From a virus (taxonomy: Duplodnaviria > Caudoviricetes): 64,000 nt of DNA. Position 1 is the first letter of the stretch. Each line of letters opens with the position of its first letter. Where the stretch lies: positions 31,607 to 95,606 of IMG/VR virus record IMGVR_UViG_3300021431_000095, one strand, 5' to 3'. A program made the translations under genes and the position numbers. The notes beneath the pieces are model-generated. The model was not told the origin of the DNA. It saw nothing but the letters and a program-made list of their open reading frames with translations, and made no database searches. Positions 2,059 through 60,187 of this stretch are shown one piece after another.

Positions 2059-2796
2059 ATGAATGTGGATTTGTATACGATTTGTTACAATGAGATTAAA
2101 ATCGCACCTTTCGTTGTTGACTACTGGAAAAGGTTCGTTAGAAAGGCTTATGTTTACGACAATGGATCTGATGATGGAACGGTAGAATATCTGTCGCAAT
2201 TTCCATTCATAGAGATGGGACATTTCGACAGTGATGGACTGGACGATATAATAAATGTGAAGATAAAGAATTCTGTGTGGAAGAACAGCGTCGGTACTGC
2301 CGATTTTGTGGTGGTGTGTGACTTCGACGAGTGTCTGTACTCGAAGGATCTGTTTAGAGAGTTGCAGTATATGAAGGACAACGCGATGTCGATGTGTAAA
2401 CCGATTGAGTATATGCTTCTTGGAAGGGAGTTTCCAAAGTATGACGGTGAGAGGCTAAGTCATGAAATTATGAATTCTGGTTACAGTGGAGATTCCAAAA
2501 TTATTCTTTTTGATCCAAATCTGATAGAGGAGACGAACTGGCTCCCATGGTGTCATGTCTGCCATCCTAAGGGTACAGTGAAGATGTATGACGGTGACAA
2601 GATTTTCACAATGCACCATTCCGAGATGTCGCCAGATTACTGCCTCGACAAGTTCAGAAGGAGAAGGAACAGGTTCTCCAGTACAAACATGAAATACGGA
2701 TATGGGACATTCTATTTCACCGACGATAAAAAGGTGGAAAGAGACTTGTATGAGAAACTCAGAACGAAATGTATAAACATAAATGACGTTATATGA
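2059..2796 (+). CDS. GT-A fold glycosyltransferase (GT2-like)
   Basis: CYNE, YDNGSDDGT, VCDFDE (DxD) motifs. Confidence 0.85.
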   Translation: MNVDLYTICYNEIKIAPFVVDYWKRFVRKAYVYDNGSDDGTVEYLSQFPFIEMGHFDSDGLDDIINVKIKNSVWKNSVGTADFVVVCDFDECLYSKDLFRELQYMKDNAMSMCKPIEYMLLGREFPKYDGERLSHEIMNSGYSGDSKIILFDPNLIEETNWLPWCHVCHPKGTVKMYDGDKIFTMHHSEMSPDYCLDKFRRRRNRFSSTNMKYGYGTFYFTDDKKVERDLYEKLRTKCININDVI

Positions 2797-3596
2797 AAGT
2801 TACAGTGTGCTGTATAGCAAAAATGGAAAATAGATATATCAGGGAATGGGTCGATTGGTACAAGAAACTGAATTTTGACAGGATAATAATAGTCGACAAC
2901 AACGATATCGACGGAGAGACATTCGTGGAATCTATACCTGACTACATCGAGGATGGGACGGTTGAAATTATCGACAGAAGAGGTGAGGAAAAGGCTCAGT
3001 TCGCTTCATACAATTACGTATATCAAAAGGTATTTAATGAAGACTGGATTGCGTTTTTTGATGTTGATGAATTTCTTGTGTTGGAAAAACACGATACGAT
3101 ACAGGAATATCTTTCTATGTTTGATGGAAACACAGATGTTGTCAAGATAAATTGGATGTGTTATGGGGATTGTGGAAATGTTTATTATGAGGACAAACTC
3201 GTGAACGAGAGATTCAAGGATCCTCTACCTTATGATTATTCAACAGGAAGAATTCCGAATAACTACCATACAAAATGCATAATCAGGTCTAATTGTTCGG
3301 AGAAAAACATTTCATATTGTGTGAATCCTCATGTTCCGTTAGGAAACAATATTGTTTATAGGAATTCCGCTGGAAAATTGACAGGATCGTCTCCGTTTGA
3401 AAAATACGATTTTAATTACTCATATCTTAAACATTTTACAACAAAGACTATACAAGAATTTATTGAGAATAAAATGGTGAGGGGTGTTCCTGATAGAAGC
3501 AGGGAAGACGCAAAGAGGGATGTTAATCTTGACATGTTTTTTGGATATAATGAAAAGACATATGAAAAACTAAAAGTAGTTGAACAATACAAATGA
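2793..3596 (+). CDS. GT-A fold glycosyltransferase (GT2/GT92-like)
   Basis: CIAKMENRYIREWV, VDNN, FFDVDEF (DxD), KCII motifs; ATGA overlap with upstream gene. Confidence 0.85.
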   Translation: MKVTVCCIAKMENRYIREWVDWYKKLNFDRIIIVDNNDIDGETFVESIPDYIEDGTVEIIDRRGEEKAQFASYNYVYQKVFNEDWIAFFDVDEFLVLEKHDTIQEYLSMFDGNTDVVKINWMCYGDCGNVYYEDKLVNERFKDPLPYDYSTGRIPNNYHTKCIIRSNCSEKNISYCVNPHVPLGNNIVYRNSAGKLTGSSPFEKYDFNYSYLKHFTTKTIQEFIENKMVRGVPDRSREDAKRDVNLDMFFGYNEKTYEKLKVVEQYK

Positions 3597-4591
3597 AAAG
3601 TGTCCTGATTACAGGAGTCGCCGGATTGATAGGGGCGAACATGGCTAATTGGATAATCGAAACTCATCCAGAGTACAATGTTGTAGGTATAGACAATTTG
3701 TTTGGTGGCTATATTGAGAATGTTAACCCTAAAGTCAAATTCCATAAAAGGGATTTGTCAATTGATCGGATAGATGATATATTTGATGAGAACGATATAG
3801 AGTATGTGTATCATTTTGCTGCATATGCTGCTGAAGGATTGTCTCCTTTTATAAGAAAATTCAATTACCAGAACAATGTCGTGTCCACGGCATCTATCAT
3901 AAATGAATGTATCAAACACAATATAAAACGGCTTGTGTTTACCTCATCCATGAGTGTATATGGTCATGGAAAATTGGACGGAAGCAGGTTCGATGAGGAT
4001 GATATTCCTTGCCCGATCGATCCATATGGTATAGCAAAGTATGCTTGTGAAATGGACATTCGCGTTGCAGGGGAGCAACATGGTATGGACTGGTGTATAA
4101 TACGTCCGCACAACGTTGTTGGTGTTCTTCAGAATATATGGGACAGATATAGAAATGTGATAGGTATATGGATGTATCAGATCCTTCACAACGAGCCCAT
4201 GCTGATATATGGTGATGGGAATCAAACAAGGGCATTTTCATATATAAAGGATAATATGGAACCTCTTTGGAATGCTGCGGTTTTTGATACAGCGTCAAAA
4301 CAGATAATAAATCTTGGAGGAACTGTTCCTTACACGATAAACGAGGCTGCTGAAGCTTTGTGTAAAATCACAGGATATGACAAAATTGAACACAGGGAGC
4401 AAAGACACGAAGTAAAATATGCAGTATCTACATATCAAAAATCAATTGATGTCCTTGGGTTCAAACAAACAACATCGCTTGAAGGAATGATGGTTGAAAT
4501 GTGGGAATGGGCTAAGACCCAGCCGAACAGAGAAAGATACAAATGGAACAATTACGAATTAAACAAAGGAATATACAGCTATTGGAAATGA
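3593..4591 (+). CDS. NAD-dependent nucleotide-sugar epimerase/dehydratase (extended SDR)
   Basis: TGVAGLIG Rossmann motif, TSSMSVYG, YGIAK (YxxxK), GDGNQTRAF. Confidence 0.92.
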   Translation: MKSVLITGVAGLIGANMANWIIETHPEYNVVGIDNLFGGYIENVNPKVKFHKRDLSIDRIDDIFDENDIEYVYHFAAYAAEGLSPFIRKFNYQNNVVSTASIINECIKHNIKRLVFTSSMSVYGHGKLDGSRFDEDDIPCPIDPYGIAKYACEMDIRVAGEQHGMDWCIIRPHNVVGVLQNIWDRYRNVIGIWMYQILHNEPMLIYGDGNQTRAFSYIKDNMEPLWNAAVFDTASKQIINLGGTVPYTINEAAEALCKITGYDKIEHREQRHEVKYAVSTYQKSIDVLGFKQTTSLEGMMVEMWEWAKTQPNRERYKWNNYELNKGIYSYWK

Positions 4592-5403
4592 AAAAGAAAA
4601 TGATATTTTATTGGTACGTTCCGTCATGCGGATGGCATGAAATATATGATTTGCATATAAAGAATCTGAACATTTACAAAGATCGTTTTGATGAAGTTTC
4701 TTTTATCATATCTGTTGACGATGTTGATGGCGATGGATACAAAAGAAATATAGAACTAACAATAGATAAACTTAGATGTATATTTCCAAATGCCGAATTT
4801 ATAATGTATAAGAACGATAAGGAATTAAGAGAGTCCGTTTATTTCTATAACGAAATCGTTATGAAACTAGATCAGTTTGATAACGATGTTATAATATTTT
4901 TTGCACACAATAAAGGAGTAGACAGCTGGTATGCAAATGATAGGCTTGACACATGGATAAATTTGATGTATTTTGAAAATCTATTTAATGTTGATCGTAT
5001 ATGTAATTATTTTTCAAAAGAAAGTGTGTGTTGTGCAGGAACATATACAATAATGAACCTTAAAGCTTGGAGTTTTCTTAAATATTCATGGCATTATAGT
5101 GGGACGTTTTTTTGGATATGTCCAAAAAGGATATTGAATATGATACATACTAATAATGAAGTTATTCCTCCAAACAACAGATATGCGACAGAAGGCTTTC
5201 TTGGAAGTGTTATACCGAATGATGACAAATACAGAATAGCTATTCTTGGAAGAGCGACAGAGGTTCATCTTGGAAACATGTGGATTGAAAATAATATGTC
5301 TTCTGAGGAAAAGAGAGTTTATGAAAATCTTTATGGGAAACTTGAATGTACAACAGGAAGATCCCAATTGTTTTCAAACCATGTTTACAAATTAATAAAA
5401 TGA
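4588..5403 (+). CDS. putative glycan-modifying/glycosyltransferase-like protein
   Basis: ATG at 4588 overlaps upstream stop; AHNKG and HYSGTFFW motifs; sits in the GT operon. Confidence 0.5.
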   Translation: MKKKMIFYWYVPSCGWHEIYDLHIKNLNIYKDRFDEVSFIISVDDVDGDGYKRNIELTIDKLRCIFPNAEFIMYKNDKELRESVYFYNEIVMKLDQFDNDVIIFFAHNKGVDSWYANDRLDTWINLMYFENLFNVDRICNYFSKESVCCAGTYTIMNLKAWSFLKYSWHYSGTFFWICPKRILNMIHTNNEVIPPNNRYATEGFLGSVIPNDDKYRIAILGRATEVHLGNMWIENNMSSEEKRVYENLYGKLECTTGRSQLFSNHVYKLIK

Positions 5404-6191
5404 GCAAGAAACTGAAAATATTCGTCTGTACATATAACCAACCAGTATGGTTTGACAAGGATCCTTTTGTACCGATGCAGGTGGGGAGAAGTTGTTCTTC
5501 GATGAAATTTGAGAATTATGTAGGTGATGATACGGGTGACAATATTTCTTACAAGAACAAGTATTATTCAGAACAAACAGGTGTGTACTGGGTTTGGAAG
5601 AACATGAAGGACAACCATCCAGACTATGTTGGGTTCTGTCACTACAGAAAACTTCCGTTACTTTTCGATTCAGACAGGACAGAGTTGAGGATGTCGCATG
5701 ACGAATATCTTGAGAAAAGTGGGATAAGCGAGAACTCCATCCTGAAGCTGCTCAAGAAATCGGATGTTGTTTGTATAAAACCGTTCTTCTATTTTAATAG
5801 ATCCCTTGAAGAATTCTACAGGGAAATCCATATATCCGAAGACTATGATTTGCTTTCGGATGCTATACGGAGAATAAAGCCTGACTATTATCCCGCTTTC
5901 TCTTATATAATGACACAGAAACCTTCAGGTTTCTTTCCGTACAACATATACATAATGAAATGGGAACGCTTCTGTGAATATTGCTCATTCATATTTCCAG
6001 TATTTGAACAGATTGAGAAATTGATAGACTATACCAAACACAATGGATATCAGTCAAGGGTGTTCGGTTATATGACAGAGAGACTTCTCACGGTATTCAT
6101 AGTAAAAAATGATTTATCAGTTTCGCCTGTTCCTTGCGCAATCATAGACGAGTACGAGAATCCAGATTACACTGTTCAAGATGAAAAATAA
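5400..6191 (+). CDS. DUF4422-like putative glycosyltransferase
   Basis: DDTGDNISYKNKYYSE, YWVWKN, GFCHYR, RVFGYMTERLL motifs; ATG at 5400. Confidence 0.85.
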   Translation: MSKKLKIFVCTYNQPVWFDKDPFVPMQVGRSCSSMKFENYVGDDTGDNISYKNKYYSEQTGVYWVWKNMKDNHPDYVGFCHYRKLPLLFDSDRTELRMSHDEYLEKSGISENSILKLLKKSDVVCIKPFFYFNRSLEEFYREIHISEDYDLLSDAIRRIKPDYYPAFSYIMTQKPSGFFPYNIYIMKWERFCEYCSFIFPVFEQIEKLIDYTKHNGYQSRVFGYMTERLLTVFIVKNDLSVSPVPCAIIDEYENPDYTVQDEK

Positions 6192-21500: not shown

Positions 21501-22262
21501 GTTCTTTTAAGTCTAAATAAAAAAATGGAAAAGGGTGCAATTCTTGTAATCGAAAAATATCAACAAACCGTTCTTAGTACAGAGGAAGAAATGAAGAAAG
21601 GAATTTCTTTGTTGTTTACAGAATACAAGGACAAGAAGCATCTTGAAGATTCTAGATTTAACTCTGCTATTGCTGCGGGTCAAACAAATAATCAACAAAC
21701 AAATCAAACAAATAATAATCAAGTTGTGAACCAACAAACATCTCAGACAAACAACAATACAGACGCTTCCACAAACACAGATGCCTCGACCAACAACACA
21801 ACGGACGCTTCGACTAACGGAGGAAAGAACACCACGTTCAAGGCTGACGGGAACGGAAACTTCACCGATTCTGTCAATGTGAAGTACGACTCGGCAAAAT
21901 CAATCAAGGAAGGTCTCTACACCACAGTCACCGTCAGAAGATCCTACAGTGAGTATATGCCAAAATGGTATGTTGTTTCGGAATCTGTATACGATGACGG
22001 TTGCGGCAAATCGACTATGCTTGATTCTCCATCTGTCAGAAGGAAGATGAACACCAGATCCGACGTGATGAACTTCGTGAAGTCGCACGACAATACAAAG
22101 ATTATGCAGTTCGAGTCAAAGCACACCTACAGTATATCGAACGACAAGGGTTATGTTCCTTCGGTTGCTACGCCTCTCTATGAGTCGGTAATGTTCGTGA
22201 AGTTTGACAATGACGACAATATAATCGAGAAAATCTACGCAGGAAACACAAAGGTACAGTAA
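18555..22262 (+). CDS. large putative internal head/ejection protein
   Basis: 1235 aa in the head cluster; repeated [VIL]-x-E motifs; two N-proximal hydrophobic helices. Confidence 0.55.
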   Translation: MSNSNKVNEDNWTGFHFNGMTNGINEAPVPYDANVPVDVNILHGTGAPGGYVWGRPGNTSVSFDINLFSNNSKSTVIDKTVSGAASGGGAAANGLAWFGTHFKEIAIVAAGSAILLALIKLIKKANREIKIRYNKVVKTLQKAQQDFTLNPNGLDSTAVMKGQGSKIADAFARLFTLNIFDKERREATRTTNIGLYPFCDRYKEEITKDFKCAIEAFNKIKVASESEKENGGVADSENESANVKVYNSFHEAFAMDPIFEGEKVNESVLAAISAGVGLASLAVRGGQFVMSKLSNKGRSVEGSEKIVQVTKESTREICYSIIYQYLDKYVNMDRVFKELGISSESLADLDASSCDKLKNFLEKYQKPEKNQYSKQYFRVKTAYDNMLKHYYNIGDGIIKNFEKFTEAKDEKHANLLVSAKEKLQNMWDAQKDMFNSNFSHVLIEIVSSDVYIAYLNFILEKVMPVFKTGLAGDADYVLDIMPQKNQYYLVRQTQEQPWLGDGEANNGNVAIAKVESFDRSKQEIKVKIIGLLNGNYEVSSNGIVTLDKDATVDYNAYKNDDGAKKEVILKYGKWLSLDPLLMDWKENIESNVYGRMVPKEKPEYGEYIYAYGSKENNAESGREEYNRIVFASYDAKKYEYRKTVLIKLKNPLTEEEFRSLCEQTSDESDKNMDFDNYGNSSESSWVMGIINRINSLEKEEVEANSTEDIVKIVNEIGESIKIKAATSLYKRTTKNSRGRDIDEYVFAEVSGDLESMYTESGAQRLNDRVNEAEDSSASVVKPGDKGADKNLIARIFCVNVSAGKPLTGDRKENQFSGSIIKIDPACSVDDLNAEMQKFDPKFEIVENNADTLRKDIIDGILENKGSREVTLSGTYEIGKINDAVSAIENRENTAEQIDNEIGNIANNILSDLGKLNVKENDYGQRKFQFRGGKGYVGDKEHVFLGIKENTPNISNDIKKYGCFSVNTGIKYYNEDITIDVYPVLLSLNKKMEKGAILVIEKYQQTVLSTEEEMKKGISLLFTEYKDKKHLEDSRFNSAIAAGQTNNQQTNQTNNNQVVNQQTSQTNNNTDASTNTDASTNNTTDASTNGGKNTTFKADGNGNFTDSVNVKYDSAKSIKEGLYTTVTVRRSYSEYMPKWYVVSESVYDDGCGKSTMLDSPSVRRKMNTRSDVMNFVKSHDNTKIMQFESKHTYSISNDKGYVPSVATPLYESVMFVKFDNDDNIIEKIYAGNTKVQ

Positions 22263-26035: not shown

Positions 26036-27814
26036 ATGGCTAAGAATAACAAAAACAACATTGCTCAGATTTGCGAGTCTTGGGGTCCTATGGTGAAAGC
26101 CATTACCAAGAATACCGTAAATGAGTCGAGCGCAAGGTTCGAGTGGATGTGCGAATATGCACACAACCACGCTATGGCTCTTAACGAGGAGTCAATCGGC
26201 GGTGCATCATTCCCATTCAACACTCTTTACAACACCAACGGTGTCGGTAACGCAGTTCCTGCACAGCAGGCTGGTATGACCGCCGCTGATCAGGCTTCAA
26301 CCGCTTCCAACGGTTCTGGCGACAAATGGCCTGCCCTGCTTCCTATGGCACTTCAGGTCGCTGCACGTACCATCGGTTTCGACCTCGTGAACACCCTTCC
26401 TATGCAGGGTCCTACCTACGTCATTCCTTTCCTGGATTACGTATACGCAGGTTCGAAAGATGCTTACGGCGCAACTCCTTCGTACAACGGTGCTACTGCC
26501 AATCCTAAGATCGGCACCAAGCTCGGTAACGAAGTTGATCCCGCCTACAGCCTGTACGAGGCTCCTCACGCCTTCCGTTGCAAGCTCACCAAGGACGCTT
26601 CAACCAGCGAGTACATCCAGGCTATGAAGGATGCTTCTACCGGTTTCGAAATCGGCACAGATCCTAAAGTTAAGGTGTACTTCATCGGTCTCAGCCGTAT
26701 TGCTGCTGATCCTATGTTCAAGGTCGACGGCAACTCGAAGAACGTCTCTCTCGGTTCAGTGTTCGGTCCTACCGCAGAGGTCAGCGTGACCGTCGGTGGA
26801 AAGACCTTCACCCTCTCACGTCCTCGCTTCATCAGCGCACTTGAGGATCAGGTCCTCGGTTTCACTGGTGCTGGCAAGTACGACAGCGACGCTTGGACTG
26901 GAACATTCCAGAGCGACGAGCACCTCTACGAGCCTATGACCCGTGCAACTGGTGAGATGCAGTATCCTCGCCAGATGTCTCTGAAGGTGTTCACCAAGTT
27001 CGGTCAGGTCGGAACCCAGAGCGTGGCAGTCGCCGTGACTCAGGAGCAGGTTCAGGATCTCCAGAAGCAATGGGGTATCGATGTTCTCAAGCTCGTCGAG
27101 ACCGCAGCTATCAACGAACTCTCTCAGAGCATCAACAAGCACATCCTCAGCCGTCTGTTCGCACTTGGTTGGAGAAACCACGTCGAGGCTTACCAGTCTG
27201 AAGGTGTCAACCTCAACATCAGCCTCACTGGTGTCGAAGGAACCAAGACCTGCGTCACCTACTTCGAGACCGATGCACAGGATGCTCCTAAGGAGGTTCA
27301 GGTCGAGATGCCTGTCCCAGCCATCGTGAAATACGGTGACTTCGAGAACAGCGACACCGTGTTCAAGAAAGTTGGTGTCAACCTGCTTTATGCTGGCAAC
27401 ATCATCATGAACCGTGGTCGTAGAGGACCTGCCAACTTCATCGTCACCAACGCCAAGATCGCTACCATGCTCCAGAGCAACGCACAGTACGCTTTCAGCC
27501 CTGTCGCCAACACTCTGAACCAGAACAACGGCAGCCTGTATCCTGTTGGCACCATCATGGGTATGACCCTCTATGTCGATCCTCTGATGGCTCTGTACGA
27601 TACCAGAATCCTCGTTGGTCGTAAGGGTGGCAAGGAAGAGCCAGGTGTTGTGTTCGCTCCTTACATCATGGCTGAGTCAGTCCGCCTGATTGCTGAGCAC
27701 ACCGCAGCTCCTAAGGTGATTGTGAAATCTAGGTACAGTTTGGTCGATTGCGGCTGGTACCCTGAGCTCAACTATATCACCTTCTATGTTAACACTCCTG
27801 ACACGATCGTCTAA
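26036..27814 (+). CDS. major capsid protein (gp23-like)
   Basis: Follows protease; PMQGPT, EQVQDLQ, INKHIL, RRGPANFIV, FAPY, KSRY motifs; strong codon bias. Confidence 0.92.
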   Translation: MAKNNKNNIAQICESWGPMVKAITKNTVNESSARFEWMCEYAHNHAMALNEESIGGASFPFNTLYNTNGVGNAVPAQQAGMTAADQASTASNGSGDKWPALLPMALQVAARTIGFDLVNTLPMQGPTYVIPFLDYVYAGSKDAYGATPSYNGATANPKIGTKLGNEVDPAYSLYEAPHAFRCKLTKDASTSEYIQAMKDASTGFEIGTDPKVKVYFIGLSRIAADPMFKVDGNSKNVSLGSVFGPTAEVSVTVGGKTFTLSRPRFISALEDQVLGFTGAGKYDSDAWTGTFQSDEHLYEPMTRATGEMQYPRQMSLKVFTKFGQVGTQSVAVAVTQEQVQDLQKQWGIDVLKLVETAAINELSQSINKHILSRLFALGWRNHVEAYQSEGVNLNISLTGVEGTKTCVTYFETDAQDAPKEVQVEMPVPAIVKYGDFENSDTVFKKVGVNLLYAGNIIMNRGRRGPANFIVTNAKIATMLQSNAQYAFSPVANTLNQNNGSLYPVGTIMGMTLYVDPLMALYDTRILVGRKGGKEEPGVVFAPYIMAESVRLIAEHTAAPKVIVKSRYSLVDCGWYPELNYITFYVNTPDTIV

Positions 27815-39738: not shown

Positions 39739-40598
39739 TGTCACCAGATAACGTAAGATATTTGATTATACCTGATGTCCACGGAAGGACATTCTGGAAA
39801 CACATGGTAGAGGAGTGCCTCAAAAACCATCCGCATATAAAGATAATATTCCTAGGGGACTACCTTGATCCGTACCAGTACGAGGGTATAACCCCAGAGG
39901 ATGCAATAGAGGTGTTTGACGAGATCATAGAACTCAAACACCAATATCCTGACAGGATTATACTTCTTCTTGGAAACCATGATCTTCACTATGTCATGAA
40001 CGACAGGAGAGGATGCAGGATGGACTACAGGAACAAGGGAAGAATCGTCGACACATTCAGGAAAGAGTTCGATAACTTCGATTTGTGCTGGTTCGATGAG
40101 ATTGTAGGGAAGAACATCATATTCTCACACGCTGGGTTCACAAGGGGATGGCTTAATCATAGGATAAAATGGATAAATCCAGAAATGCTCGAGAAATATA
40201 CCTCGAATGAGATATACTACAGTATAGACTACAGGATGATTAAGGAAACCGACTGGAAAGATCTTCTGAAAAGATCACATATCTTCAGCGATGTTTCATA
40301 CTACCGTGGGGGTGACGACTCCTTCTCAAGTTTTCTGTGGACCGATGTGAACGAGATGATAGAGGCTGCTGATCCGATAAACGCCATGCAGATTTTCGGT
40401 CACTCGCAGCAGGAGAAGGATCCTGTGAAGTATAAGGATTTCTATTGTCTTGACTGCAGGAAACCTTTTCTTCTTACAGACGACGCTGTCGTGAGGACTG
40501 AGTATTATCTTGCGTTGGACGACAATACGGCGGAGATCGATGAAAGGATGAAAAAGAAAGCAGAGTCTTTGTCAAAATATATGGGTTTCTTCATGTAA
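39738..40598 (+). CDS. calcineurin-like metallophosphoesterase
   Basis: PDVHG, GDYLD, GNHD, SHAG, GHS. Confidence 0.9.
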   Translation: MSPDNVRYLIIPDVHGRTFWKHMVEECLKNHPHIKIIFLGDYLDPYQYEGITPEDAIEVFDEIIELKHQYPDRIILLLGNHDLHYVMNDRRGCRMDYRNKGRIVDTFRKEFDNFDLCWFDEIVGKNIIFSHAGFTRGWLNHRIKWINPEMLEKYTSNEIYYSIDYRMIKETDWKDLLKRSHIFSDVSYYRGGDDSFSSFLWTDVNEMIEAADPINAMQIFGHSQQEKDPVKYKDFYCLDCRKPFLLTDDAVVRTEYYLALDDNTAEIDERMKKKAESLSKYMGFFM

Positions 40599-40667
40599 TT
40601 AGGCTTTTATAAATTTGCTTGCAACAAATTAAAATAAATAGTAAAAGCAAAACTTCATTTTTGGCAA

Positions 40668-41600
40668 ATGAGAAGAGTATACAACTATAACACTGGAAAA
40701 CTTTACGAGTCAGACGGAACATACACCATAACAGTTACCGAGAAGGCTCTGTCGCCAGATGTCGAGGTCAATCCAGACGACAACGGCGAAATCGATCAGA
40801 AATATCTTTCATACGACGAGGCTATCGACGCTCTTGACGAGATTGTCGACGAACTTTGCAAGAACGAGGGATTCAACAGGGAGGATGCGGATATCGTCGA
40901 GACTGACAACGGATTCTGTGTGACTGTTCCTGAGTATAAGCAGTGGTGCTTCGTAATTTCTGGTGACGTTGCGGAAAGTGTCAATGAGGAGAAAAAGGAC
41001 GATCCTGAGAAGAAGGAAGATGTTTCGGAGAAGAACGAGTCGGTTTCCACTAGGTTCTCGAAACTCCGCGAGATGTTCGAGGCTGCAGGTCTGAACGAGG
41101 AAGAGGATGACGAGAAGAAAGACGACGAAAAGAAGGATTCCGATGAAGACGATAAATCGGATGATGACAAGAAAGACGATGAGAAAAAGGATTCCGATGA
41201 TGAGAAGAAGGATTCCGACGACGATGATGAGGAGAAGGAGATGAAGGCAATTGTCATCACCGTGAAGAAAGGTGACGAGGACAAGTGCAAGGAAGAACTC
41301 ATTGAGGCTGGTGTCGCCGACGAGGATATCGAGATTCTTGATGGAGAGGAAGACGATGAGAATATCGACATCAGGATTGATGTTAACTCAGTATTTGAAC
41401 TGAAGGACTACCTTGAGAAGAAGGGAATCGATCTAGAAGAGGAAATCGGCGGAGAGATTGTCGACGACAGTGACGACGAGAACGGTGGCGAGAACTCTGA
41501 TGACAACAATGACGAGAACGGTGAGGAAGGCGAAGAGGAAGCCGAATTCAACTTCGATGACCTTGGAGATCTCTTCGGTGCCGATGAAGGGGATGAATAG
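40668..41600 (+). CDS. very acidic late protein (scaffold/core-like)
   Basis: ATAAATA at 40634-40640; D/E/K repeats; LYE/VNE/LNE motifs. Confidence 0.6.
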   Translation: MRRVYNYNTGKLYESDGTYTITVTEKALSPDVEVNPDDNGEIDQKYLSYDEAIDALDEIVDELCKNEGFNREDADIVETDNGFCVTVPEYKQWCFVISGDVAESVNEEKKDDPEKKEDVSEKNESVSTRFSKLREMFEAAGLNEEEDDEKKDDEKKDSDEDDKSDDDKKDDEKKDSDDEKKDSDDDDEEKEMKAIVITVKKGDEDKCKEELIEAGVADEDIEILDGEEDDENIDIRIDVNSVFELKDYLEKKGIDLEEEIGGEIVDDSDDENGGENSDDNNDENGEEGEEEAEFNFDDLGDLFGADEGDE

Positions 41601-41621
41601 CATATAATCGCAATAACATGT

Positions 41622-41652
41622 AAAAGGAGCTTCAAAACGAGGCTCCTTTTTT
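41622..41652 (+). terminator. intrinsic terminator
   Basis: AAAAGGAGCTTC...GAGGCTCCTTTT. Confidence 0.8.
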
Positions 41653-41730
41653 GTTTATATGCAATTTTCCAAAAAATTACACTGTCCTCAAAGATAAATA
41701 CAGAAAAGACAAAAACAAATAGCTAGAAAA

Positions 41731-44220
41731 ATGTCACAGAAAATAAATTTTTCAGACTACACTGCTTCTGGTGTCTACTTCATTGAGATAGACAATTCTA
41801 TCGTCACTGGGTCATCAATTCAGGCAGCGCTTCGTCTAGCTGTCGGTTTCAACATGAGAGGTCCTTTCAACCGTCCAGTCTATCTCGCCGACACCGAGAC
41901 CTGCACAAGGCTCTTCGGCGGAATCGACAGGAAACTTGAGAGAAGGGGATGCTTCACTAACAGGAACGTGAGGACTATGATTCCAAAGGCTCCTGTGTAT
42001 GTCCTTAATCTTCTCAACGTTGACACTAGCAATAAGGAAAGCAACAAGGATACTGTCGGGTTCACCCTTCTGTCACTTAAGCCGACTATGGACTCGTCTA
42101 CCTTCAAGACCCCTTATGCCTACATGTACGACAGGACGAAGTTCTGGATTGCAGACGACGGAGCTTTTGTAGACAACACGTTCCAAGCAGCATCTGAAAA
42201 GATGGACGGAAACGTTTCCTCAATAGAGGAATCGGCTATGTTCGGAATTTCAAACTGCGGTACAAAGGACATTTCGGTGATTATCAGGAAATCTGAGAAT
42301 GTTCAGGGCTACAACCTTAGCTTCCTTGATTTCTACGGCAATCAGGACGACATCCCTTATCCATGGATCAACCCGAACGACTTCGTTTCTGATTATTTCG
42401 TGGATGTGTACATCATCGCAGGCGACTGGGGTGAGGATAAGTACGCCTCTTTTGCAGGCGATGTCGTTTGGTCGAACTACTTCACTGAAAAAGGTTTGAA
42501 GAAGGACACCTTCAAGAAATTCCTCAGACTCGACGCTGTGAACGTGATCGCACAGTACACTGGTTGTATTCTGCCTAACTTCCTTGACAAACAGGGTAAT
42601 CTGAAGTCAATCAATTACCTTGTAAACAAGTCCAGCAATGAGACGGGTCTGCTCTTCGGTATCAACGAGAAAGCTATGGATGCTGTCGCGCTTGACGGTT
42701 CCACATTCTTCATCGACAGCGACGGTAGCGGAGACTATGATCCTTCTACCGACAAGATCGCAGCTTTTGCACCAGACTTTGTCGGACACATGCTTACCAC
42801 TACAATAGCAAGCGATCCTACCAAGAGCAAGTTCACCTACATGTCGTGCAATATCGACGCTAGTGGAAATGTGTTCAATGCAAGTACGTTTACCGACGCT
42901 TCTTCCAACATCGATTCAAGCACCAAGTTTGCACTTGATGCAGCAACCGGTGAGAAGATCAATATCGGCGACTATGTGCGTGCAAACAATGGATTGATGG
43001 CTAGGATTATCAAGAAACGCGGAACAAGAGTCAATCCCGATAACGAAGACAGTTCGACATATTATATGTTTACTGCAACAGATGTTGTAAATGGAGACAC
43101 GCTTGCTTCTGAAGTTGAGATTCACAAGTCATACACAGAGATGTACGACACCATGAAGCTCTACTCGCTCGCAGGTCTTAAGATTTGCAACAGACACATG
43201 CCTGGTTATGACAGTGACGGTAAAGTTGACAACGAGGCTGGTGTTGAGAAGATTTACTCGATGCTCAAGGATCCTGGTATCCAGAAGGGTCTCTTGAATA
43301 ATGACTCGATCGACTTCCGCTATGTTGTAGATACTATGGCTTACGGTCTGAAGGCTAACTGTGGAGGCAAGGTGCATCTCGCAGATCTTGCAAACGCCAA
43401 GGGACACTGTACCGCTTTCATCAACGCTCCTTCGATGTCACAGTTTGCTGCATCCGATGCTCCTTTCTTCGGTGACAACTGGATGGACAAGACAGATCCG
43501 AGACCTGTATTCGACATCAAGTACATCCAAGAAGGCGGAAACCAGGATATGATCTACTCACCTGACACTGAGTCCTTCAGTCTTCCTGATGAAGAACATG
43601 GCGCAAACCATGTTGGAGTGTTCGCGCCTTTCTTCAGATATACTGAAGGAAACAGGTTCGTTCTCGTTCCTCCTGCAGCAGATGTCTGCAACACATTCAT
43701 GAACAAATTCACCGGTGGCGATCCTTACAAGACCGTGGCCAACACTAACGGTGTCATTGACAATCCAGCCATTGCTGGTGTGGAGTTCGAGTTCGACGAG
43801 ACCGACAGGGGCTACCTTGAGAACATGGGTATCAACCCAATCATCAACCGTGGTGGCACTATCATGATCTACGGCGACAGAACTGCTTACCAGACCGTGA
43901 ACAGCGATCTCAGCTTCCTGCATGTCCGCGAGCTCCTGAACACCATCGAGATCAGCTGCAAGTCAGTCCTCGACGACTATGTGTTCACCTACAACATCCC
44001 GACTACAAGGGCTGAAATCGTGACGAGGATCAATCCTATCCTGTCTGCAATGCAGGATTCTGGTGCCCTCGTGAAGTACGAGATTGAATGTGACGACCTC
44101 AACAATGACAAGGATGTAATCGACAACAAGTTCTGCATCGTCGACATCGGCGTGTGGATCTCACAGAACATGGAGAAGATTGTTGTGCCGATTACCTTAA
44201 ACCGTTCAACTACGGCTTAA
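41731..44220 (+). CDS. tail sheath protein (gp18-like)
   Basis: SGVYFIEID, RGPFNRP, VPPAA, INPI, IYGDRT, LHVRELL, CDDLNN; ATAAATA at 41694-41700. Confidence 0.92.
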   Translation: MSQKINFSDYTASGVYFIEIDNSIVTGSSIQAALRLAVGFNMRGPFNRPVYLADTETCTRLFGGIDRKLERRGCFTNRNVRTMIPKAPVYVLNLLNVDTSNKESNKDTVGFTLLSLKPTMDSSTFKTPYAYMYDRTKFWIADDGAFVDNTFQAASEKMDGNVSSIEESAMFGISNCGTKDISVIIRKSENVQGYNLSFLDFYGNQDDIPYPWINPNDFVSDYFVDVYIIAGDWGEDKYASFAGDVVWSNYFTEKGLKKDTFKKFLRLDAVNVIAQYTGCILPNFLDKQGNLKSINYLVNKSSNETGLLFGINEKAMDAVALDGSTFFIDSDGSGDYDPSTDKIAAFAPDFVGHMLTTTIASDPTKSKFTYMSCNIDASGNVFNASTFTDASSNIDSSTKFALDAATGEKINIGDYVRANNGLMARIIKKRGTRVNPDNEDSSTYYMFTATDVVNGDTLASEVEIHKSYTEMYDTMKLYSLAGLKICNRHMPGYDSDGKVDNEAGVEKIYSMLKDPGIQKGLLNNDSIDFRYVVDTMAYGLKANCGGKVHLADLANAKGHCTAFINAPSMSQFAASDAPFFGDNWMDKTDPRPVFDIKYIQEGGNQDMIYSPDTESFSLPDEEHGANHVGVFAPFFRYTEGNRFVLVPPAADVCNTFMNKFTGGDPYKTVANTNGVIDNPAIAGVEFEFDETDRGYLENMGINPIINRGGTIMIYGDRTAYQTVNSDLSFLHVRELLNTIEISCKSVLDDYVFTYNIPTTRAEIVTRINPILSAMQDSGALVKYEIECDDLNNDKDVIDNKFCIVDIGVWISQNMEKIVVPITLNRSTTA

Positions 44221-44243
44221 TTAAAACGAACAATAGATAAGAA

Positions 44244-44861
44244 ATGCCAGATACACCAATTTCTTCGGTAGGAACTCTCGGTCTTCCTCACTTCAGGACA
44301 TCAAGAGTGTCTCGCGAGCTCTACGAGCCAGTCTATCTTAACTTGTTCACTGTTGAGATCCAGCTTCCTTCGAAGCTCTCATATTCGACCAATGAAACCA
44401 ACCTTCTCCTCGAAGGTGTTACAAGGGTCGGAGGTCTCGACACCAACAAGAATCCGGGAGTGTCTGAACTCCAGCACTACAAATACTCTGATAGGAGCTT
44501 CGCAGCTTCGGGCACACAGCAGACGTTCATCGACCTGCAGCTCGACTTCGAAATCAACGTCAGGGGCAGTGCTCAGGGTTCGCCAGACATGTACACTCTC
44601 AAGATGCTCCGCGCATGGAACGATCTGATTTGGGATCCACTTACTGGTCGTCAGGGTTTGAAGGTCGACTATGTTGCACCTACCATGACAATCACGATGC
44701 ACGACAAGATCAACCAACCATTTTGGCAGTGGATCTGCTACAACGTGTTCCCGACAACCAACCTTACCATCCCCGACCTTAACTACCAGAGCAAGACTCA
44801 GTTGTACAAGGTCACGGGCTTCACACTTAGATGTGACTGGTGGAACGAGGTTATGCTCTAA
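44244..44861 (+). CDS. tail tube protein (gp19-like)
   Basis: Follows sheath; 205 aa; NLFTVEI, LRAWNDLI, VFPT, CDWW. Confidence 0.8.
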   Translation: MPDTPISSVGTLGLPHFRTSRVSRELYEPVYLNLFTVEIQLPSKLSYSTNETNLLLEGVTRVGGLDTNKNPGVSELQHYKYSDRSFAASGTQQTFIDLQLDFEINVRGSAQGSPDMYTLKMLRAWNDLIWDPLTGRQGLKVDYVAPTMTITMHDKINQPFWQWICYNVFPTTNLTIPDLNYQSKTQLYKVTGFTLRCDWWNEVML

Positions 44862-44886
44862 TTCATTGAATATTAACAACTTAAAA

Positions 44887-44919
44887 GAGAAACGACTGAA
44901 ATTAATCAGTCGTTTCTTT
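44887..44919 (+). terminator. intrinsic terminator
   Basis: AGAAACGACTGA-loop-TCAGTCGTTTCT followed by T-rich run. Confidence 0.8.
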
Positions 44920-44992
44920 GTTTGTGTTGTACCGAAAAAATAATTTCACTGAAATTACAGATAAATACAGAAAGACCATAGACTTCTATTAA

Positions 44993-47900
44993 ATGGCGAA
45001 CAACACCATAGAGATATTAACCAGTATAAACAAACAGGTTTCGACAATTGCAAACTACCTTGCCCCGAAGAACGGAAACGGGAAGGAAGCCACAGCGAAG
45101 TTGTCTAAAGGAAACATTTCGACAACAGACGACATCGACAGCTCGAAATCGATCAAATGGAATCTTAGTTCAAAAAGTCTCAACGAATTCATCAAGATAA
45201 TCGGCGGACTTCCATGTGCGGTTAAGGCTGTTGCTGGATTGTCTGGGAAGACGATGAATAAGTTTAAGTCGACTATGGAGACCATATCTAAAATTATGGT
45301 TGAGGTCGACAAAACCGGGAAAGACATAAACACAAAGAATTCTGAAAATTACATAAAGAATGTAAAAAGTCTTGCAGAAATAAACAAGAGTTCAGCGAAG
45401 AATGTGCTGATTGCTCCAGCTGCTTTACTCGGTGCAACACTGACATATCCAGTGATTATGATGTATGCTGGGATATTCAGTATGGTTGATGTGCTGATGA
45501 AAACCAAAGGACTGAGAACACTTCTCAACATAAAAGTGCTGACCAAGTCTGTGAAGATGATTACAAATCTCATGATGCAGTCGGCGTTGCTGGTTGTGGC
45601 GTGTATAGCCATCGGTGCTCTCGTTTCCCGTGCAGATACACAGAAGATACTTCTTAACGGTCTCGCTGTTCTTGGCGGAACGCTCGCTACGTTAAGCGTC
45701 ATAATCCTTTTGACAGGCATGATTGGCAAGATGGCGAAGGCAGTGGGTGCTGTACGTGCAGTAAAAGAGATAACATTCCTTACACTGGTTTCTATAGGTC
45801 TTGTGTCTGTATGCTTGGCTCTCGGTGCATTGCTGGCGCAGGGTGACATGGGAAAAATACTTCTCGGAGGTCTCGCTGTTCTCGGCGGAACGCTCGTGAC
45901 ATTGTCGTTGATCATACTCTTGACGGGTATGGCTGGCGTATTGATAAAGGAAACTGGTGCTATCCGCGCCGTCAAGGATATTGTGTTTATGACATTCGGT
46001 GTGATGGCTATATTGATTGCATCGAAGTTCCTTGCCGATTTTATTTCTGATCACCATGAGAAGATATTGGTTGGATTTGGAGCCACTGCATCCGTAATGG
46101 TGAGCCTTGTCGGTATCGGGTGGCTTGCAGGTAAACTTCTCGGTAGTGCAAAGAAAGGAATAATTGCCCTTGGTGTTATTGAGATTCTGGCTGCCGGTGC
46201 AATGGGACTCATGTTTATGGCATCTTCTCTTTCCGAAAAGCTCGAAGGAAGATACGATCAAGTCACATATGCACTTCTGATGACAACTGGTGTGATAGTC
46301 TTGTTCGGCGGACTTGCGGCTGCAGCCAGCTTCATAATGCCAGAGATTATAATGGGGAGTGTAGCTATAGGGCTTGCCTTGTTGATGGGAGCAGGGGCGA
46401 TTAAATTGATAGGGTCTATACTTGAGCTTGACAAGAAAAAGGATGAGTATGGTGTTTCGTGGGGTCAACTTGCTAAAGATGTTCTTGGAATAAACGGGGT
46501 GATAGCCGCTTTCGGGCTCACTGCGGCAGCATTCTCGCTTCTTACTGTACCAATACTTTTTGCTATACCTGCAATGGTTATAACAATAGGGTTTAGTAGA
46601 AAAGTAATCGGTGTGGTGAGCAGCGTTGTTGATGTTGCGAAGAAGATAGATGAAGCTGGTGGTATACAGAGAGTGAACGCTGTGCTGAACAGGGATATTC
46701 CGTCAATGATGAAGGGATTCAATAAGAAAAACTTCGATATGGATCTTTCTTTGTTCCAAATTGCAAAACTAGGAATAAAGTATGCCGCTGTAGCAAAACT
46801 TTCCAAAAACCTTCTTAGTACAGCTGAGGCTATATCCAAAATAGCAAACATAGGAACAATGACAGAAGGCGGCCTGATTAGACCAGTGCTTTCGATAGAC
46901 AAAGAAACAGGAAAAATTGTTTATGGAGAAGCTGTGGATGTCGTTGGTGTTTCACGTGTAATATGCAATACATTGAAGGTGTTTGTCGAAAGCATGGACT
47001 ACAACTTCAAGGACTTGCTGAAAATGATGATTGGTGCCCAGATGTTCAAAATTATGGGTTCAATCACAGAGCCGATATCGACGTTCCTTGATATGCTTAC
47101 TGGATTTGTTGGCGGAACAAATTCTGAAGGAAACTATACGTTGACACCAGTAAGAATTGGTGATGATGGCAAGATTACATATGGTGCTCCTGTTCCAGTA
47201 AGGGACACTGCAATCACAATAATGAAAGCTGTCAATGCTTTTGTGAGCGAACTCTACAGCAAGGAGAACGCCGAGACTTGGTCAGAGATGGTTTACGGAG
47301 ACAGGACAGGTTGGCAGAAATTCTGGGGATCTACAAACACAAAGACGGACGCTATAAACGAGATAGGCGGAATGCTCGGAGTGTTCGTTTCCCCTGTGGT
47401 CGATTTTATAAACATGCTGTCACAGTTCGAGAGTGCTGGACCAGGAAAACTGACAAAACTGATTGTAGATCATGACGGAACCGTCAAGAAAGGCGGGACT
47501 GTCGATGTCAACTCCATAGCTAATACGATCGCTGGATCGATAACTTCATTTGTGACGAAGATATACAATATGCCTGACATCGACGGCATCGATGACAAGA
47601 CTGAGCAGCTTCAGAAGGTTGTCGAAGGTGTAGGAAACGTATCCAAGGCATTCGCAGATTTGAGCAACAACAAGGATATCGACACTGTCAAACTGTCTGG
47701 ATTGTACGACAACTTCAACAAGGGATCTAAATCCATAATAAGAGTTGCTGGTGCGATATCGGTGCTTGACAAGACAATCGAGGCTAACAACGCTAAGAGA
47801 AAGAAAAACATAAAGGAACTTGGCAACGCAATCGAGGAACTCATGAACAAGTTCAAGGACGACGGTAACTCAATAAGGAACCTTTATGGATTGGTCAACG

Positions 47901-48190: not shown

Positions 48191-48199
48191 CAAAGGATA

Positions 48200-50065: not shown

Positions 50066-50070
50066 ATCGA

Positions 50071-50100
50071 GAACCGGACTGAAAAGTTCGGTTTTTCTTT
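50071..50100 (+). terminator. intrinsic terminator
   Basis: AACCGGACT-GAAA-AGTTCGGTT followed by T-run. Confidence 0.7.
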
Positions 50101-58900: not shown

Positions 58901-60187
58901 AGTCTTTGAACTGTTGTAATAACAAATACCTCTTCCAGTTCCTGTAGACCTTGCATTAGTTTTGAATTTCTGACCTTCTTTGACAGGTATGTAATCTACG
59001 CTATACTTATAGTTTGGATTGTCTGTGTTATTTGGAAGTCCGTTAGAGCCAAGCAATCCGTTTGAAAGTGTGATAGAACCAATTATATTTATATCAATAG
59101 TTTCCCCAATTATTAGGGACATGTCTTTCAATTCTGATTCTTTAGCTCCCCCACTTCCAACAAGATTCTTACTTCCCGCAGTAGGCTCATTATCCACACC
59201 TTGCCAATCACTTTCAGTAGTGCTAAAAGTATCAGACATAAGTCTGTATTGCACATACTTGTTGTCAGAACTCGGTACAGAGCCTTGTATAAACTTAATG
59301 CTCATACCACCCTTTCTAACTGCAGTAGGAATAAGAGTATTCAAATTAGCATTACTTAACAAAGCAGAAAGAGATTCAAAAACAGCACCACCATTATGAG
59401 CAGATACATCGTAAACAGCTCCTAAAGCAAGTTCATTCTGTATTCCTCCACTCTTAACTAAATTATTAGAACCAACAGTAGGTTCATTGTCAATACCTAC
59501 ATTCTTCACCTTTTGTCCCGTTGCAAAAGTACCACCTCCAGAGACATTATTAGCTTGGTAATATTGACCATCATAATAACACTCAACAGTCTCACCGTCT
59601 TCCCAAGTATTCGTAGAACTACAGATCGAGCCGTCATATATTATACTCTTCGCTCCCTGCCCGTTTATATTCAGCGTCGGTGTACTATTACCTGTGTGCT
59701 TGTTGGTAAACCTGATCTTCATCGATCCACCCAAACTCAACACATAACCGCTTGCATCGTTGACTGTTTTTGCTGCAGTACCTCCGCTTGTTGTACAGGT
59801 ATAATACCCTACCATTGCATTGCTACCTTCTTCATACCAAGACTTGACATTGCCTGTCCACACACTCGAATCGAGTACATAGTTTCTCACACAATTCACT
59901 CCAAGCATGTCGGAATTAAACGTCAGTTTTAATCCACCATGCTTATACTCCTCAGGAACCTGTGCGATAGCCTCGCTCAAAGTGAAGATTGAGGTGTCCC
60001 TTCTCGGCGAGTCTACACCTGCAGTCTTGTTAACTTGGTGCAGCGAGATGTTATATTCGGTTATATAAGTGGTGAGATCGTCGCCGTCTGGCTTGTCCAC
60101 TATAGCCTTCTGTATTGAAATAGGATAGACAGAACTGTCTTTGTTTCCCCTGTCCTTGAACTGGATCATGCTGGAATCTATTGTCAT
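55988..60187 (-). CDS. tail fibre/tailspike-like receptor-binding protein with polysaccharide deacetylase-like domain
   Basis: DNEPTxGSxNLVxSGG repeats, three beta-rich repeat modules, LGFDDY and GDHTWIH (NodB/CE4-like); minus-strand ATAAATA at 60240-60246. Confidence 0.72.
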   Translation of the reverse strand: MTIDSSMIQFKDRGNKDSSVYPISIQKAIVDKPDGDDLTTYITEYNISLHQVNKTAGVDSPRRDTSIFTLSEAIAQVPEEYKHGGLKLTFNSDMLGVNCVRNYVLDSSVWTGNVKSWYEEGSNAMVGYYTCTTSGGTAAKTVNDASGYVLSLGGSMKIRFTNKHTGNSTPTLNINGQGAKSIIYDGSICSSTNTWEDGETVECYYDGQYYQANNVSGGGTFATGQKVKNVGIDNEPTVGSNNLVKSGGIQNELALGAVYDVSAHNGGAVFESLSALLSNANLNTLIPTAVRKGGMSIKFIQGSVPSSDNKYVQYRLMSDTFSTTESDWQGVDNEPTAGSKNLVGSGGAKESELKDMSLIIGETIDINIIGSITLSNGLLGSNGLPNNTDNPNYKYSVDYIPVKEGQKFKTNARSTGTGRGICYYNSSKTLLSAIDGASDIYRFEEFTVPSGASYMRICYEKANLYALQLLMIGGSVDDMPTEYSKGLTRSGGVYKAIKNMEEKENHEISKVKESNLNLVFDGNGFINGNASGAISSENGFNYTTDYTRVFKGDVLLVSVWASGNVVVALYDDSKVYDQGYNFELVDGSYGELTIPHNGYLRFSNRNQYNTSPNAKWKSTSLEDLENQVAEAVDQSIIVHELLDNTEIVFDVTELEQGLLRSTTGKPFAKDGTNYRYTPNFFAVKSGLKVKTNMQTSGTGASVCFYASDKDTLIGIGQGDISNGIIVPNDAKYARFSTERYSELEGKLYAYQEKKFKNSTDKNIEGLFDVTSTKDEVAMKFYSIDKDAWIANDTPLTYYPGQKRITHNYQGSVTPERRFVALGFDDYVPSDFSVVIPLLQKYGFRAEFNKVHRAVDISDNEADVKAKNCEVNAVMNSGSELGDHTWIHQKFPYDEPMFNGQNPSSPDGNQVPFPSNDQLRNDRGDGKNVFGITLTDIVKDTIGYQAPDINVAWGSMTDAQCQQFREYFSLYGGANDLIVLFDTLSNKYLGTTGSSRGSWNGSIYTGGIFTGCATSANHEVWERILEITNMLLKERFRINYNYLTWSLPGSKASHCWFEQDGKYYFDAEHTKLMNCLAKFESSLYSGKIRSWTDVLKEYGYKTTHDSASPGRYDGQKEPCMSLQFILNSHLSRPDALPYHTNRSFSFSRAWTEYTEGIDLQGSEPYEVQMYDGGANDNTKDSFRNAIEAWRHNTANGVVWGEVIDSDDTWSFRLILEGLLKYAYKTGIELFTKAEAYDVCFKHPMYDGNLIYNPRLRNTAKEFMPTALTVPSNPDGYIGDCSVSMVDGVPVLITTGSVVYQHYGIPYGTIKYSVDAKGSGTITIRSIKNKTPLTQKQYGDVLCTINVSGTDYVNQSAEFIVSDNGLTAYEGLCAGYGEKIVGLYIEYSSGLTMKNFSIVKE

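Follow-up and report, generated by a model that had tools for sequence, protein, structure and literature searches.

An Asp-x-Ser motif on the outward-facing parts of megaphage sheath and capsid proteins that behaves like a modification signal

Short sequence motifs direct protein glycosylation in several described systems. The general O-glycosylation sequon of Bacteroidota is D-(S/T)-(A/I/L/V/M/T), broadened to include S, C, G and F at the last position in Tannerella forsythia, and the system acts only on exported proteins (PMC8550257). In mycobacteriophages, phage-encoded glycosyltransferases (GTs) are thought to coat the outer virion proteins, capsid and tail, with O-linked glycans in the cytoplasm, and the glycans reportedly sit on C-terminal extensions of the capsid and tail-tube subunits (Freeman et al. 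2023, as summarised in PMC12619734). The bacterial N-glycosylation sequon of PglB, D/E-X-N-X-S/T, has an acidic residue at -2 from the acceptor as its specificity determinant and is served by a periplasmic membrane oligosaccharyltransferase with a lipid-linked donor. In the glycan shields of enveloped animal viruses, N-X-S/T sequons used by the host ER machinery come and go at individual positions while their number is maintained. Our literature searches found no report of virion glycosylation or of a D-x-S sequon in Lak or Bacteroidota phages.

Here, we analyzed a window of 64,000 nucleotides (positions 31,607 to 95,606 of IMG/VR record IMGVR_UViG_3300021431_000095) from a Lak-related gut megaphage. 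A preliminary description of the window proposed that the motif D-[ASGP]-S-T is concentrated in exposed regions of virion proteins, is nearly absent from the replication enzymes, and may be a cytoplasmic sequon modified by a GT cluster of the phage, giving a glycan-coated virion. We find that the observation holds, given that every listed instance is present in the sequence, whereas the interpretation is only partly supported: the motif, its location and its sequon-like behavior are borne out, but the link to the GT cluster of the window is not supported.

Enrichment in the window and in relatives

The main features are listed in Table 1. In addition, the N-terminal part of the fibre carries DSSM, DSSV, DTSI, DSSV, DASG and DGSI, the open reading frame (ORF) at 63602 carries DASI and DSSI, and the ORF at 36758 carries one DSST. 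In the window, D[ASGP]ST occurs 11 times against 1.22 in within-protein shuffles (0 of 5000 shuffles reach 11), and in the sheath 5 times against 0.10. However, with position 2 left open, D.ST (15 against 5.4, p=5e-4) is only the fourth-ranked of 8000 a.bc motifs, and the 31.6 kb upstream, which the preliminary description did not cover, shows no excess (1 against about 0.6). The window alone is therefore suggestive but not conclusive, and only borderline once the post-hoc choice of motif is allowed for. Annotated virion proteins of the contig show 10 against 1.8 expected, and annotated enzymes 1 against 1.7. A DNA-level repeat or slippage explanation was rejected because the Ser and Asp codons differ between copies, including AGC against TCN for Ser. 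Genetic code 15 does not lengthen ORFs on this contig, although true Lak sheath genes need it.

Table 1 Features of the window (positions in the 64,000-nucleotide stretch).
Position	Strand	Feature	Evidence
2059..6191	+	Five-gene glycan cluster: GT2, GT2/GT92-like, NAD epimerase/dehydratase, a 286-aa unknown, and DUF4422 (like the WbbM N-domain); candidate, not demonstrated, modifying system	Pfam; WbbM match E=3e-28; patchy among relatives
21762..21815	+	TDASTN three times (residues 1070, 1076 and 1084) in an Asn/Gln/Thr-rich linker of the 1235-aa head-module protein (18555-22262)	Codons differ; DAST in the same linker of a 34%-identical homologue in the Lak-like genome G003
26036..27814	+	Major capsid protein, gp23 type (592 aa)	PHROG major head protein; PF07068 in homologues
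26594..26641	+	Two KDAST motifs (residues 187 and 199) in the capsid insertion domain	Domain at 170-265 is the only well-predicted part of the model
41731..44220	+	Tail sheath gene (829 aa); outer middle domains (about residues 100-500) carry the motif	PHROG tail sheath E=3.6e-95; AF2 model pLDDT 78.5; Foldseek matches T4 gp18-type sheaths
42091..42102	+	DSST, sheath residue 121	Coil running into strand 123-128
42694..42705	+	DGST, sheath residue 322	Site shared by 43 of 120 homologues
42739..42750	+	DPST, sheath residue 337	Coil
42856..42924	+	Cluster DASG (376), DASS (389) and DSST (395), sheath residues 376-398	Long coil 387-398 before strand 399-403
43048..43059	+	DSST, sheath residue 440	Coil before strand 443-449
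44244..44861	+	Tail tube, buried inside the sheath; no motif (negative control)	PHROG tube
59624..60139	-	DSSV (residues 17 and 106) and DGSI (residue 185) in the N-terminal part of the 1399-aa fibre (55988-60187)	

The decisive evidence comes from relatives. In 120 sheath homologues D[ASGP]ST occurs 207 times against 9.2 expected, in 80 IMG/VR loci the sheath shows 87 against 7.0, and in the insertion region of the capsid family it is 61 against 0.9. The refined motif, D-[A/S/P/G]-S-[T/V/A/I], occurs 644 times against 42.5 expected in the outer middle domains of 197 sheath homologues, compared with 3 against 6.1 in the N-terminal core and 5 against 18.7 in the C-terminal core. The capsid family, tested independently, shows 107 against 5.6 in its insertion region (28-46% of the protein) and 5 against 11 in the rest. 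Hence, the outward-facing parts of both proteins carry the motif 15-19 times more often than chance. Buried or internal proteins lack this excess, with 0 against 3.0 in 76 tube homologues and 4 against 5.4 in the protein in the tape-measure position.

We also looked for co-variation between capsid and sheath across phages, but a polymerase-centred locus search in IMG/VR found no relatives and only 3 of 28 sheath contigs also hold the capsid gene. Five further pairs, linked only by identical lengths of the contigs that carry them and too few for a test, agree with co-variation (sheath 4-5 with capsid 2-3; sheath 2 with capsid 0). PHROG and Pfam searches of the other motif-rich proteins, namely the 640-aa, 1235-aa and 734-aa proteins of this contig, a 776-aa protein of G003, and the Lak-A1 proteins of 1271 and 2698 aa, gave nothing useful.

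Specificity, location and turnover of the sites

The motif is specific in order and residue. D[ASP]S[TVAI] has 182 distinct sequence contexts, against 15-43 for non-overlapping permutations of the same composition, and the number falls to 8 with Glu in place of Asp, 22 with Asn in place of Asp and 11 with Thr in place of Ser. The capsid family shows the same pattern. Among 307 distinct contexts, position 2 is Ala in 131, Ser in 100, Pro in 45 and Gly in 31, so the conserved hydroxyl residue is at position 3. The core is therefore D-[A>S>P>G]-S, specific for Ser, and position 4 is T>V>A>I and not Thr only, as first described. An unbiased tripeptide scan finds DAS as the top hit and the only multi-copy one (41 in 20 non-redundant sheaths, 21 in 14 capsids), and among all a-[ASGP]-b-c motifs the top 7 by number of distinct sites are all D-x-S-x.

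The sheath has a predicted T4 gp18-type fold with a conserved N/C-terminal core and inserted outer domains, matching the T4, P1, phiKZ and KP1 sheaths in Foldseek with E as low as 1e-19, and PF17482 is found in homologues. About 83% of sites lie in coil or loop insertions, against 47% coil in the background. The capsid AF2 model was poor (pLDDT 45.9) outside the insertion domain. The sheath N-terminus has no hydrophobic signal-like segment.

Individual sites drift at a neutral rate. Below 60% identity only 6-11% of sites persist at the same column, which is no better than arbitrary 4-mers (10-15%), yet the count stays at 3-4 per sheath against about 0.35 expected. Some sublineages have lost every site through changes of the Ser or the Asp; motif-free sublineages are represented by the sheath homologues P0021, P0068, P0086, P0109 and P0114. 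The excess is also lineage-specific, given that the proteome of Sphingomonas phage PAU has 11 against 15.6 and the PAU, MaF61 and true Lak sheaths have 0. The fold therefore does not need the motif.

Candidate modifying genes

Phage-encoded GTs are present: the cluster in Table 1 includes two GT-A genes (2059-2796 and 2793-3596), a GT111-like gene and an epimerase, although PDB sequence searches of the two small GT-A proteins gave no informative relative. GT-A genes are present in every Lak-like genome searched (G000, G001, G003, G004, G006 and Lak-A1/B2/C1, the G numbers being our labels) and were not found in PAU or MaF61, but this contrast rests on two distant outgroups and is confounded by phylogeny, and true Lak phages have a GT-A gene but a motif-free sheath. 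In G003 and G004 the GT genes sit in the same portal/UvsX core neighborhood.

However, the cluster of the window is patchy among motif-bearing relatives. DUF4422 is found only in G000 and G001, and G004, which is 87% complete and has a sheath with 3 motifs, lacks all five genes. The GT92-like gene falls to 46% identity or less after three homologues, is not found on the other long contigs that carry motif-rich sheaths, and looks recently acquired from Bacteroidales. No orthologous enzyme shared by all motif-bearing genomes was found: a screen for orthogroups present in G001, G003, G004 and Lak-A1 but absent from PAU and MaF61 gave 18 families, and those examined were structural proteins, a sigma factor or unknowns, and none was a transferase. 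The GT clusters could instead modify DNA or host glycans.

Interpretation and comparison with known systems

We interpret D-[Ala/Ser/Pro/Gly]-Ser-[Thr/Val/Ala/Ile] as a short linear motif under selection at the protein level on the outward-facing loops of virion proteins, namely the sheath outer domains, the capsid insertion domain, a head-module linker and fibres, in a clade of Lak-related megaphages. The motif itself, its specificity, its location and its evolutionary behavior rest directly on our data, whereas it is inferred that the Ser is modified at all, that the modification is a sugar, and which enzyme adds it. The most likely role is as the acceptor sequon of a Ser-directed post-translational modification made in the cytoplasm, and the most probable chemistry is O-glycosylation started by a phage GT-A glycosyltransferase and extended by the variable GT islands these phages carry, which would give a glycan-coated tail and head. 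On present evidence, with no modification observed and no enzyme identified, this remains tentative.

Alternative readings remain, although we consider each of them less likely. The sequon-like behavior says nothing about the chemistry, and no conserved phage GT tracks the motif, so the Ser could instead carry a phosphate, phosphoglycerol, acyl or similar group, or be modified by a host-encoded cytoplasmic enzyme; an acidic residue at -2 with a hydrophobic residue at +1 is also a kinase-type consensus. We regard this as unlikely, given that no kinase or other Ser-modifying enzyme was seen among the Pfam hits of this contig, that MaF61, also a Bacteroidota phage, has no motif in its sheath, so that a general host enzyme is not enough to explain the pattern, and that GT-A genes are the only transferases found in all Lak-like genomes examined.

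Equally unlikely, in our view, is an unmodified functional or structural motif, such as a favored Asx/ST-type loop that starts a strand or helix, or a surface ion- or ligand-binding patch used repeatedly in the outer domains and fibres of this lineage. In the sheath model the motif often sits just before a beta strand, position 4 favors beta-branched residues, and in fibrous, coiled-coil-like proteins (Lak-A1 2698 aa, G003 776 aa) it recurs with periods of 7, 11 or 14 residues, for example DSS[IV]xN[YF][IV] every 11 residues, where it could be structural. Against this, positions are not conserved beyond the neutral rate while the number is kept, homologous sheaths with the same fold carry none, whole sublineages lose all sites at once, and the motif also occurs in a low-complexity linker. 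Chance, or a composition artefact of Asp/Ser/Thr-rich variable regions combined with post-hoc motif choice, draws some support from the window and its upstream flank alone but is refuted by the family-level tests, which used region-specific composition and permuted-order controls.

If the motif is a glycosylation sequon, it would be a defined acceptor signal for phage virion glycosylation, of which we found none described in the literature searched, and it would extend the phenomenon from mycobacteriophages to the large, abundant and uncultured gut megaphages of Prevotella and other Bacteroidota. A four-residue tag that can be read from sequence would let glycan-coated virions be predicted from metagenomes, point to the virion surfaces that meet mucus, proteases and antibodies in the gut, and give an engineering handle for glycan display on phage particles. 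Even if the chemistry turns out to be different, the motif marks an unrecognized selective constraint acting on several hundred capsid and sheath homologues.

Compared with the Bacteroidota sequon, the phage motif shares an Asp anchor upstream of the hydroxyl acceptor, the same class of residue after it (Thr, Val, Ala, Ile) and many occurrences per protein in exposed regions, and the presumed hosts belong to this phylum. It differs in that one small residue separates Asp from the Ser, Thr is not accepted, and sheath and capsid are cytoplasmic. The canonical host motif is not enriched in these sheaths (781 observed against about 680 expected from composition, the expectation being our own estimate). 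The near-identity apart from a one-residue spacer raises the question of whether phage and host enzymes may recognize the same Asp-plus-methyl-bearing-residue determinants. It is possible, although we hold it to be somewhat less likely than not, that Lak-related megaphages of Bacteroidota run a cytoplasmic, sequon-directed Ser O-glycosylation system with an Asp(-2) determinant as a shifted-register counterpart of the periplasmic D-S/T-X sequon of their hosts, laying a glycan coat over sheath and capsid.

The mycobacteriophage system shares with this locus the presence of phage-encoded GTs, but here the candidate sites are a defined four-residue motif in internal insertion domains of sheath and capsid, the C-terminal parts are at or below expectation, the tube has none, the host phylum differs and a glycan is only inferred. 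With PglB the phage motif shares the acidic residue at -2, but that system is N-linked and no such oligosaccharyltransferase is apparent here. With the glycan shields of enveloped animal viruses it shares the maintenance of number despite turnover of positions, but here the particle is a tailed phage and the enzyme would be cytoplasmic.

Motif enrichment in the window and in relatives

The window, the last 64 kb of a 95.6-kb viral contig (G000), encodes a T4-type sheath, a tube, a gp23-type capsid protein, a prohead protease, a baseplate wedge, replication enzymes and a five-gene glycan cluster, and a gp15-like neck protein lies upstream. The cluster consists of GT2, GT2/GT92-like, NAD epimerase, an unknown protein and DUF4422, of which the DUF4422 protein matches the N-terminal domain of WbbM (E=3e-28). 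This WbbM domain is the galactofuranosyltransferase of the GT111 family. The nearest named relatives of the sheath are the Prevotella Lak megaphages, at about 39-42% identity. In contrast to the sheath genes of true Lak phages, which are open only under code 15 (1243-1311 aa), this contig uses the standard genetic code. TAG ends only 2 of 59 called genes in the window, and reading TAG as Gln does not lengthen ORFs here.

We first evaluated the preliminary description, which had listed D[ASGP]ST-type motifs in exposed virion proteins and proposed them as a sequon for phage-encoded glycosylation. Every listed instance is present at the stated coordinates, and the observation is confirmed and greatly strengthened by what follows. 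In the window, D[ASGP]ST occurs 11 times against 1.22 in within-protein shuffles, and in the sheath 5 times against 0.10. However, with position 2 left open, D.ST (15 against 5.4) is only the fourth most enriched of 8000 gapped tripeptides, in a scan whose top-ranked tripeptides are accounted for by a long Pro/Ala-rich low-complexity tail in the C-terminal third of the 12307-13563 protein. In addition, three of the copies are one local TDASTN repeat and two are a KDAST pair, and the 31.6 kb upstream, which the preliminary description did not cover, has 1 against about 0.6. On the window alone the case is suggestive only. The upstream part does encode a 640-aa protein of unknown family in the neck/tail module with four motif copies (DSST, DSSI, DPSI and DGSV) against 0.22 expected, which makes it a further candidate substrate.

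Relatives provide the replication. A database search returned 120 sheath homologues at 50-100% identity, which hold 207 D[ASGP]ST against 9.2 expected, at many different alignment positions. Among all 8000 motifs of the form a-[ASGP]-b-c, the seven with the most distinct sites are all D-x-S-x, with T, V, A, S, N, I or G in last place. The refined motif is D-[A>S>P>G]-S-[T>V>A>I], with only weak flanking preferences. It is order-specific, with 182 distinct contexts against 15-43 for non-overlapping same-composition permutations, as well as Asp-specific (Glu gives 8 contexts, Asn 22) and Ser-specific (Thr gives 11). In 80 IMG/VR loci, which may overlap with the first set and include a clade only about 40% identical, sheaths hold 237 against 28 expected, whereas tube homologues hold 0 against 3.0 and the long protein in the tape-measure position holds 4 against 5.4.

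As an independent test, the motif defined on the sheath was applied to 120 capsid homologues, which hold 112 against 16.6 expected, with 27 distinct contexts against 0-8 for the controls. By region, the sheath middle part holds 644 against 42.5, the N-terminal core 3 against 6.1 and the C-terminal core 5 against 18.7, and the capsid 28-46% segment holds 107 against 5.6, with 5 against 11 in the rest of the capsid protein. An unbiased tripeptide scan on non-redundant sequences puts DAS first in the sheath outer part, with 41 copies in 20 sequences against 4.7 expected, and it is the only top-ranked tripeptide present in more copies than there are sequences. DAS also reaches 21 copies in 14 capsids.

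Coordinates of features in the window, the contig and related genomes
Feature	Sequence	Coordinates	Strand	Content
Glycan cluster	window	2059-6191		five genes
Low-complexity tail	window	13210-13500	+	C-terminal third of the 12307-13563 protein; PAAPAAPAAPAAP...
TnpB/IS605 OrfB-type gene	window	38018-39271	+	PF01385 E=8e-23, plus a Cas12f-like TNB domain; between the polymerase region and the sheath operon
Asp-rich protein	window	40668-41600	+	310 aa, 19.4% Asp; directly upstream of the sheath gene; conserved in G001, G003 and G004; no family assignment
Calcium-loop-like stretch	window	42709-42738	+	sheath residues 327-336, IDSDGSGDYD
640-aa neck/tail-module protein	contig, upstream of the window (L001)	873-2795	+	four motif copies
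GT-A locus (L134)	G003	220001-240000		T4-type portal, TnsA-like endonuclease, UvsX/RecA-like, with NrdG and NrdD adjoining
GT-A locus (L100)	G004	40001-60000		T4-type portal, TnsA-like endonuclease, UvsX/RecA-like
2698-aa protein (L148/L149)	Lak-A1 MK250016.1	138748-146844		read with code 15; 12 motif copies

Location and turnover of the motif sites

The AF2 sheath model (pLDDT 78.5) has the T4 gp18 fold, in which the conserved N- and C-terminal parts form the inner core and the inserted middle domains face outward. About 83% of motif sites map to coil or to loop insertions, against 47% coil in the background, and they often lie just before a strand. Between the DGST and DPST motifs, the sheath outer domain also contains a stretch that looks like a DxDxDG-type calcium-binding loop. 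The capsid model is poor overall, but the motif-bearing 170-265 segment folds as a separate, confidently predicted domain, which matches the external insertion domain of gp23/gp24-type capsids. On this contig, annotated enzymes hold 1 against 1.7 and annotated virion proteins hold 10 against 1.8. All ten are in the sheath, capsid and fibre, and none is in the tube, the tape-measure-position protein, the gp15-like protein or the wedge.

As the sheath outer part diverges below 60% identity, only 6-11% of sites remain a motif at the same column, which is no better than arbitrary 4-mers (10-15%), yet the mean count stays at 3-4 per protein against about 0.35 expected. A few sheath sublineages (P0021, P0068, P0086 and P0109/P0114) have lost every site. 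In the three of these compared site by site (P0021, P0109 and P0114), each site was destroyed separately by a change of the Ser or the Asp, while sister sequences up to 84% identical (P0021) keep four. The three TDASTN copies of the 1235-aa protein lie in an Asn/Gln/Thr-rich linker and are written with different codons, and the 34%-identical homologue in the Lak-like genome G003 has DAST in the same, otherwise unalignable, linker. The excess is lineage-specific, with proteome-wide observed/expected values of 24/8.1, 36/15.2, 63/29.9, 55/31.7 and 58/26.2 for five Lak-like genomes, compared with 11/15.6 for Sphingomonas phage PAU and 22/14.4 for Flavobacterium phage MaF61. The PAU, MaF61 and true Lak sheaths, which have the same fold, carry none.

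Candidate modification and enzyme

The inferred link between the motif and the glycan cluster of the window is where the preliminary interpretation weakens. The cluster is not conserved among motif-bearing relatives: DUF4422 is found only in G000 and the Lak-like genome G001, and the Lak-like genome G004, which is 87% complete and whose sheath has 3 motifs, has none of the five genes. The homologues of the GT92-like enzyme drop to 69%, 58%, 51% and then 46% identity or less, at least one lower-ranked homologue (37% identical) is annotated as a Bacteroidales protein, and none lies on the other long contigs that carry motif-rich sheaths. A presence/absence screen found no transferase shared by all Lak-like genomes.

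On the other hand, every Lak-like genome searched has at least one GT-A gene. G001 has a fused pair, G003 has five or more plus an epimerase, G004 has a 442-aa GT2 protein, and G006 and the three Lak genomes have at least one each, whereas none was found in PAU and MaF61. In G003 and G004 the non-orthologous GT-A genes are inserted at the same place in a conserved core neighbourhood, between the portal and UvsX genes, and in G003 and G000 the island adjoins the anaerobic ribonucleotide reductase, which the GT cluster follows in this contig. This is compatible with an old GT locus whose content is exchanged over time, although it is weak evidence and is confounded by phylogeny. True Lak phages add a complication, given that they have a GT-A gene and motifs in the capsid and in long fibrous proteins but none in the sheath. 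In the fibrous proteins the motif recurs with periods of 7, 11 or 14 residues, for example DSS[IV]xN[YF][IV], and there it could be structural. In the 2698-aa protein of Lak-A1, eight of the 12 copies lie in runs with an 11-residue period, D-[SGA]-S-[IV]-[ILV]-N-[YFS]-[IVL], a fibre-like repeat of unknown structure.

Interpretation and comparison with known systems

Together, the replication in relatives, the location and the evolutionary behaviour of the motif exclude chance, composition and DNA slippage, and they argue strongly against a position-fixed structural motif. This is how a sequon behaves. That the motif is real and under selection is shown by the analysis and is nearly certain, whereas any modification of the Ser, its chemistry and the responsible enzyme are inferred from sequence alone. 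A sequon for some Ser modification is more likely than not, O-glycosylation by a phage GT-A enzyme remains a tentative reading at somewhat less than even odds, and it is unlikely, although possible, that the window's own cluster carries it out. The interpretation in the preliminary description is partly supported.

The general O-glycosylation of the host phylum uses D-(S/T)-(A/I/L/V/M/T), broadened to include S/C/G/F in the third place, and acts only on exported proteins (PMC8550257). The phage motif shares the Asp anchor and the class of residue after the acceptor, but differs in having a one-residue spacer, in rejecting Thr and in lying on cytoplasmic proteins. The canonical host motif is not enriched in these sheaths, with 781 observed against about 680 expected by our own estimate. 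Literature searches returned no paper describing the phage motif. The closest functional precedent is mycobacteriophage virion glycosylation (as summarised in PMC12619734), which places glycans on C-terminal extensions of capsid and tube subunits, and not on an internal sequon.
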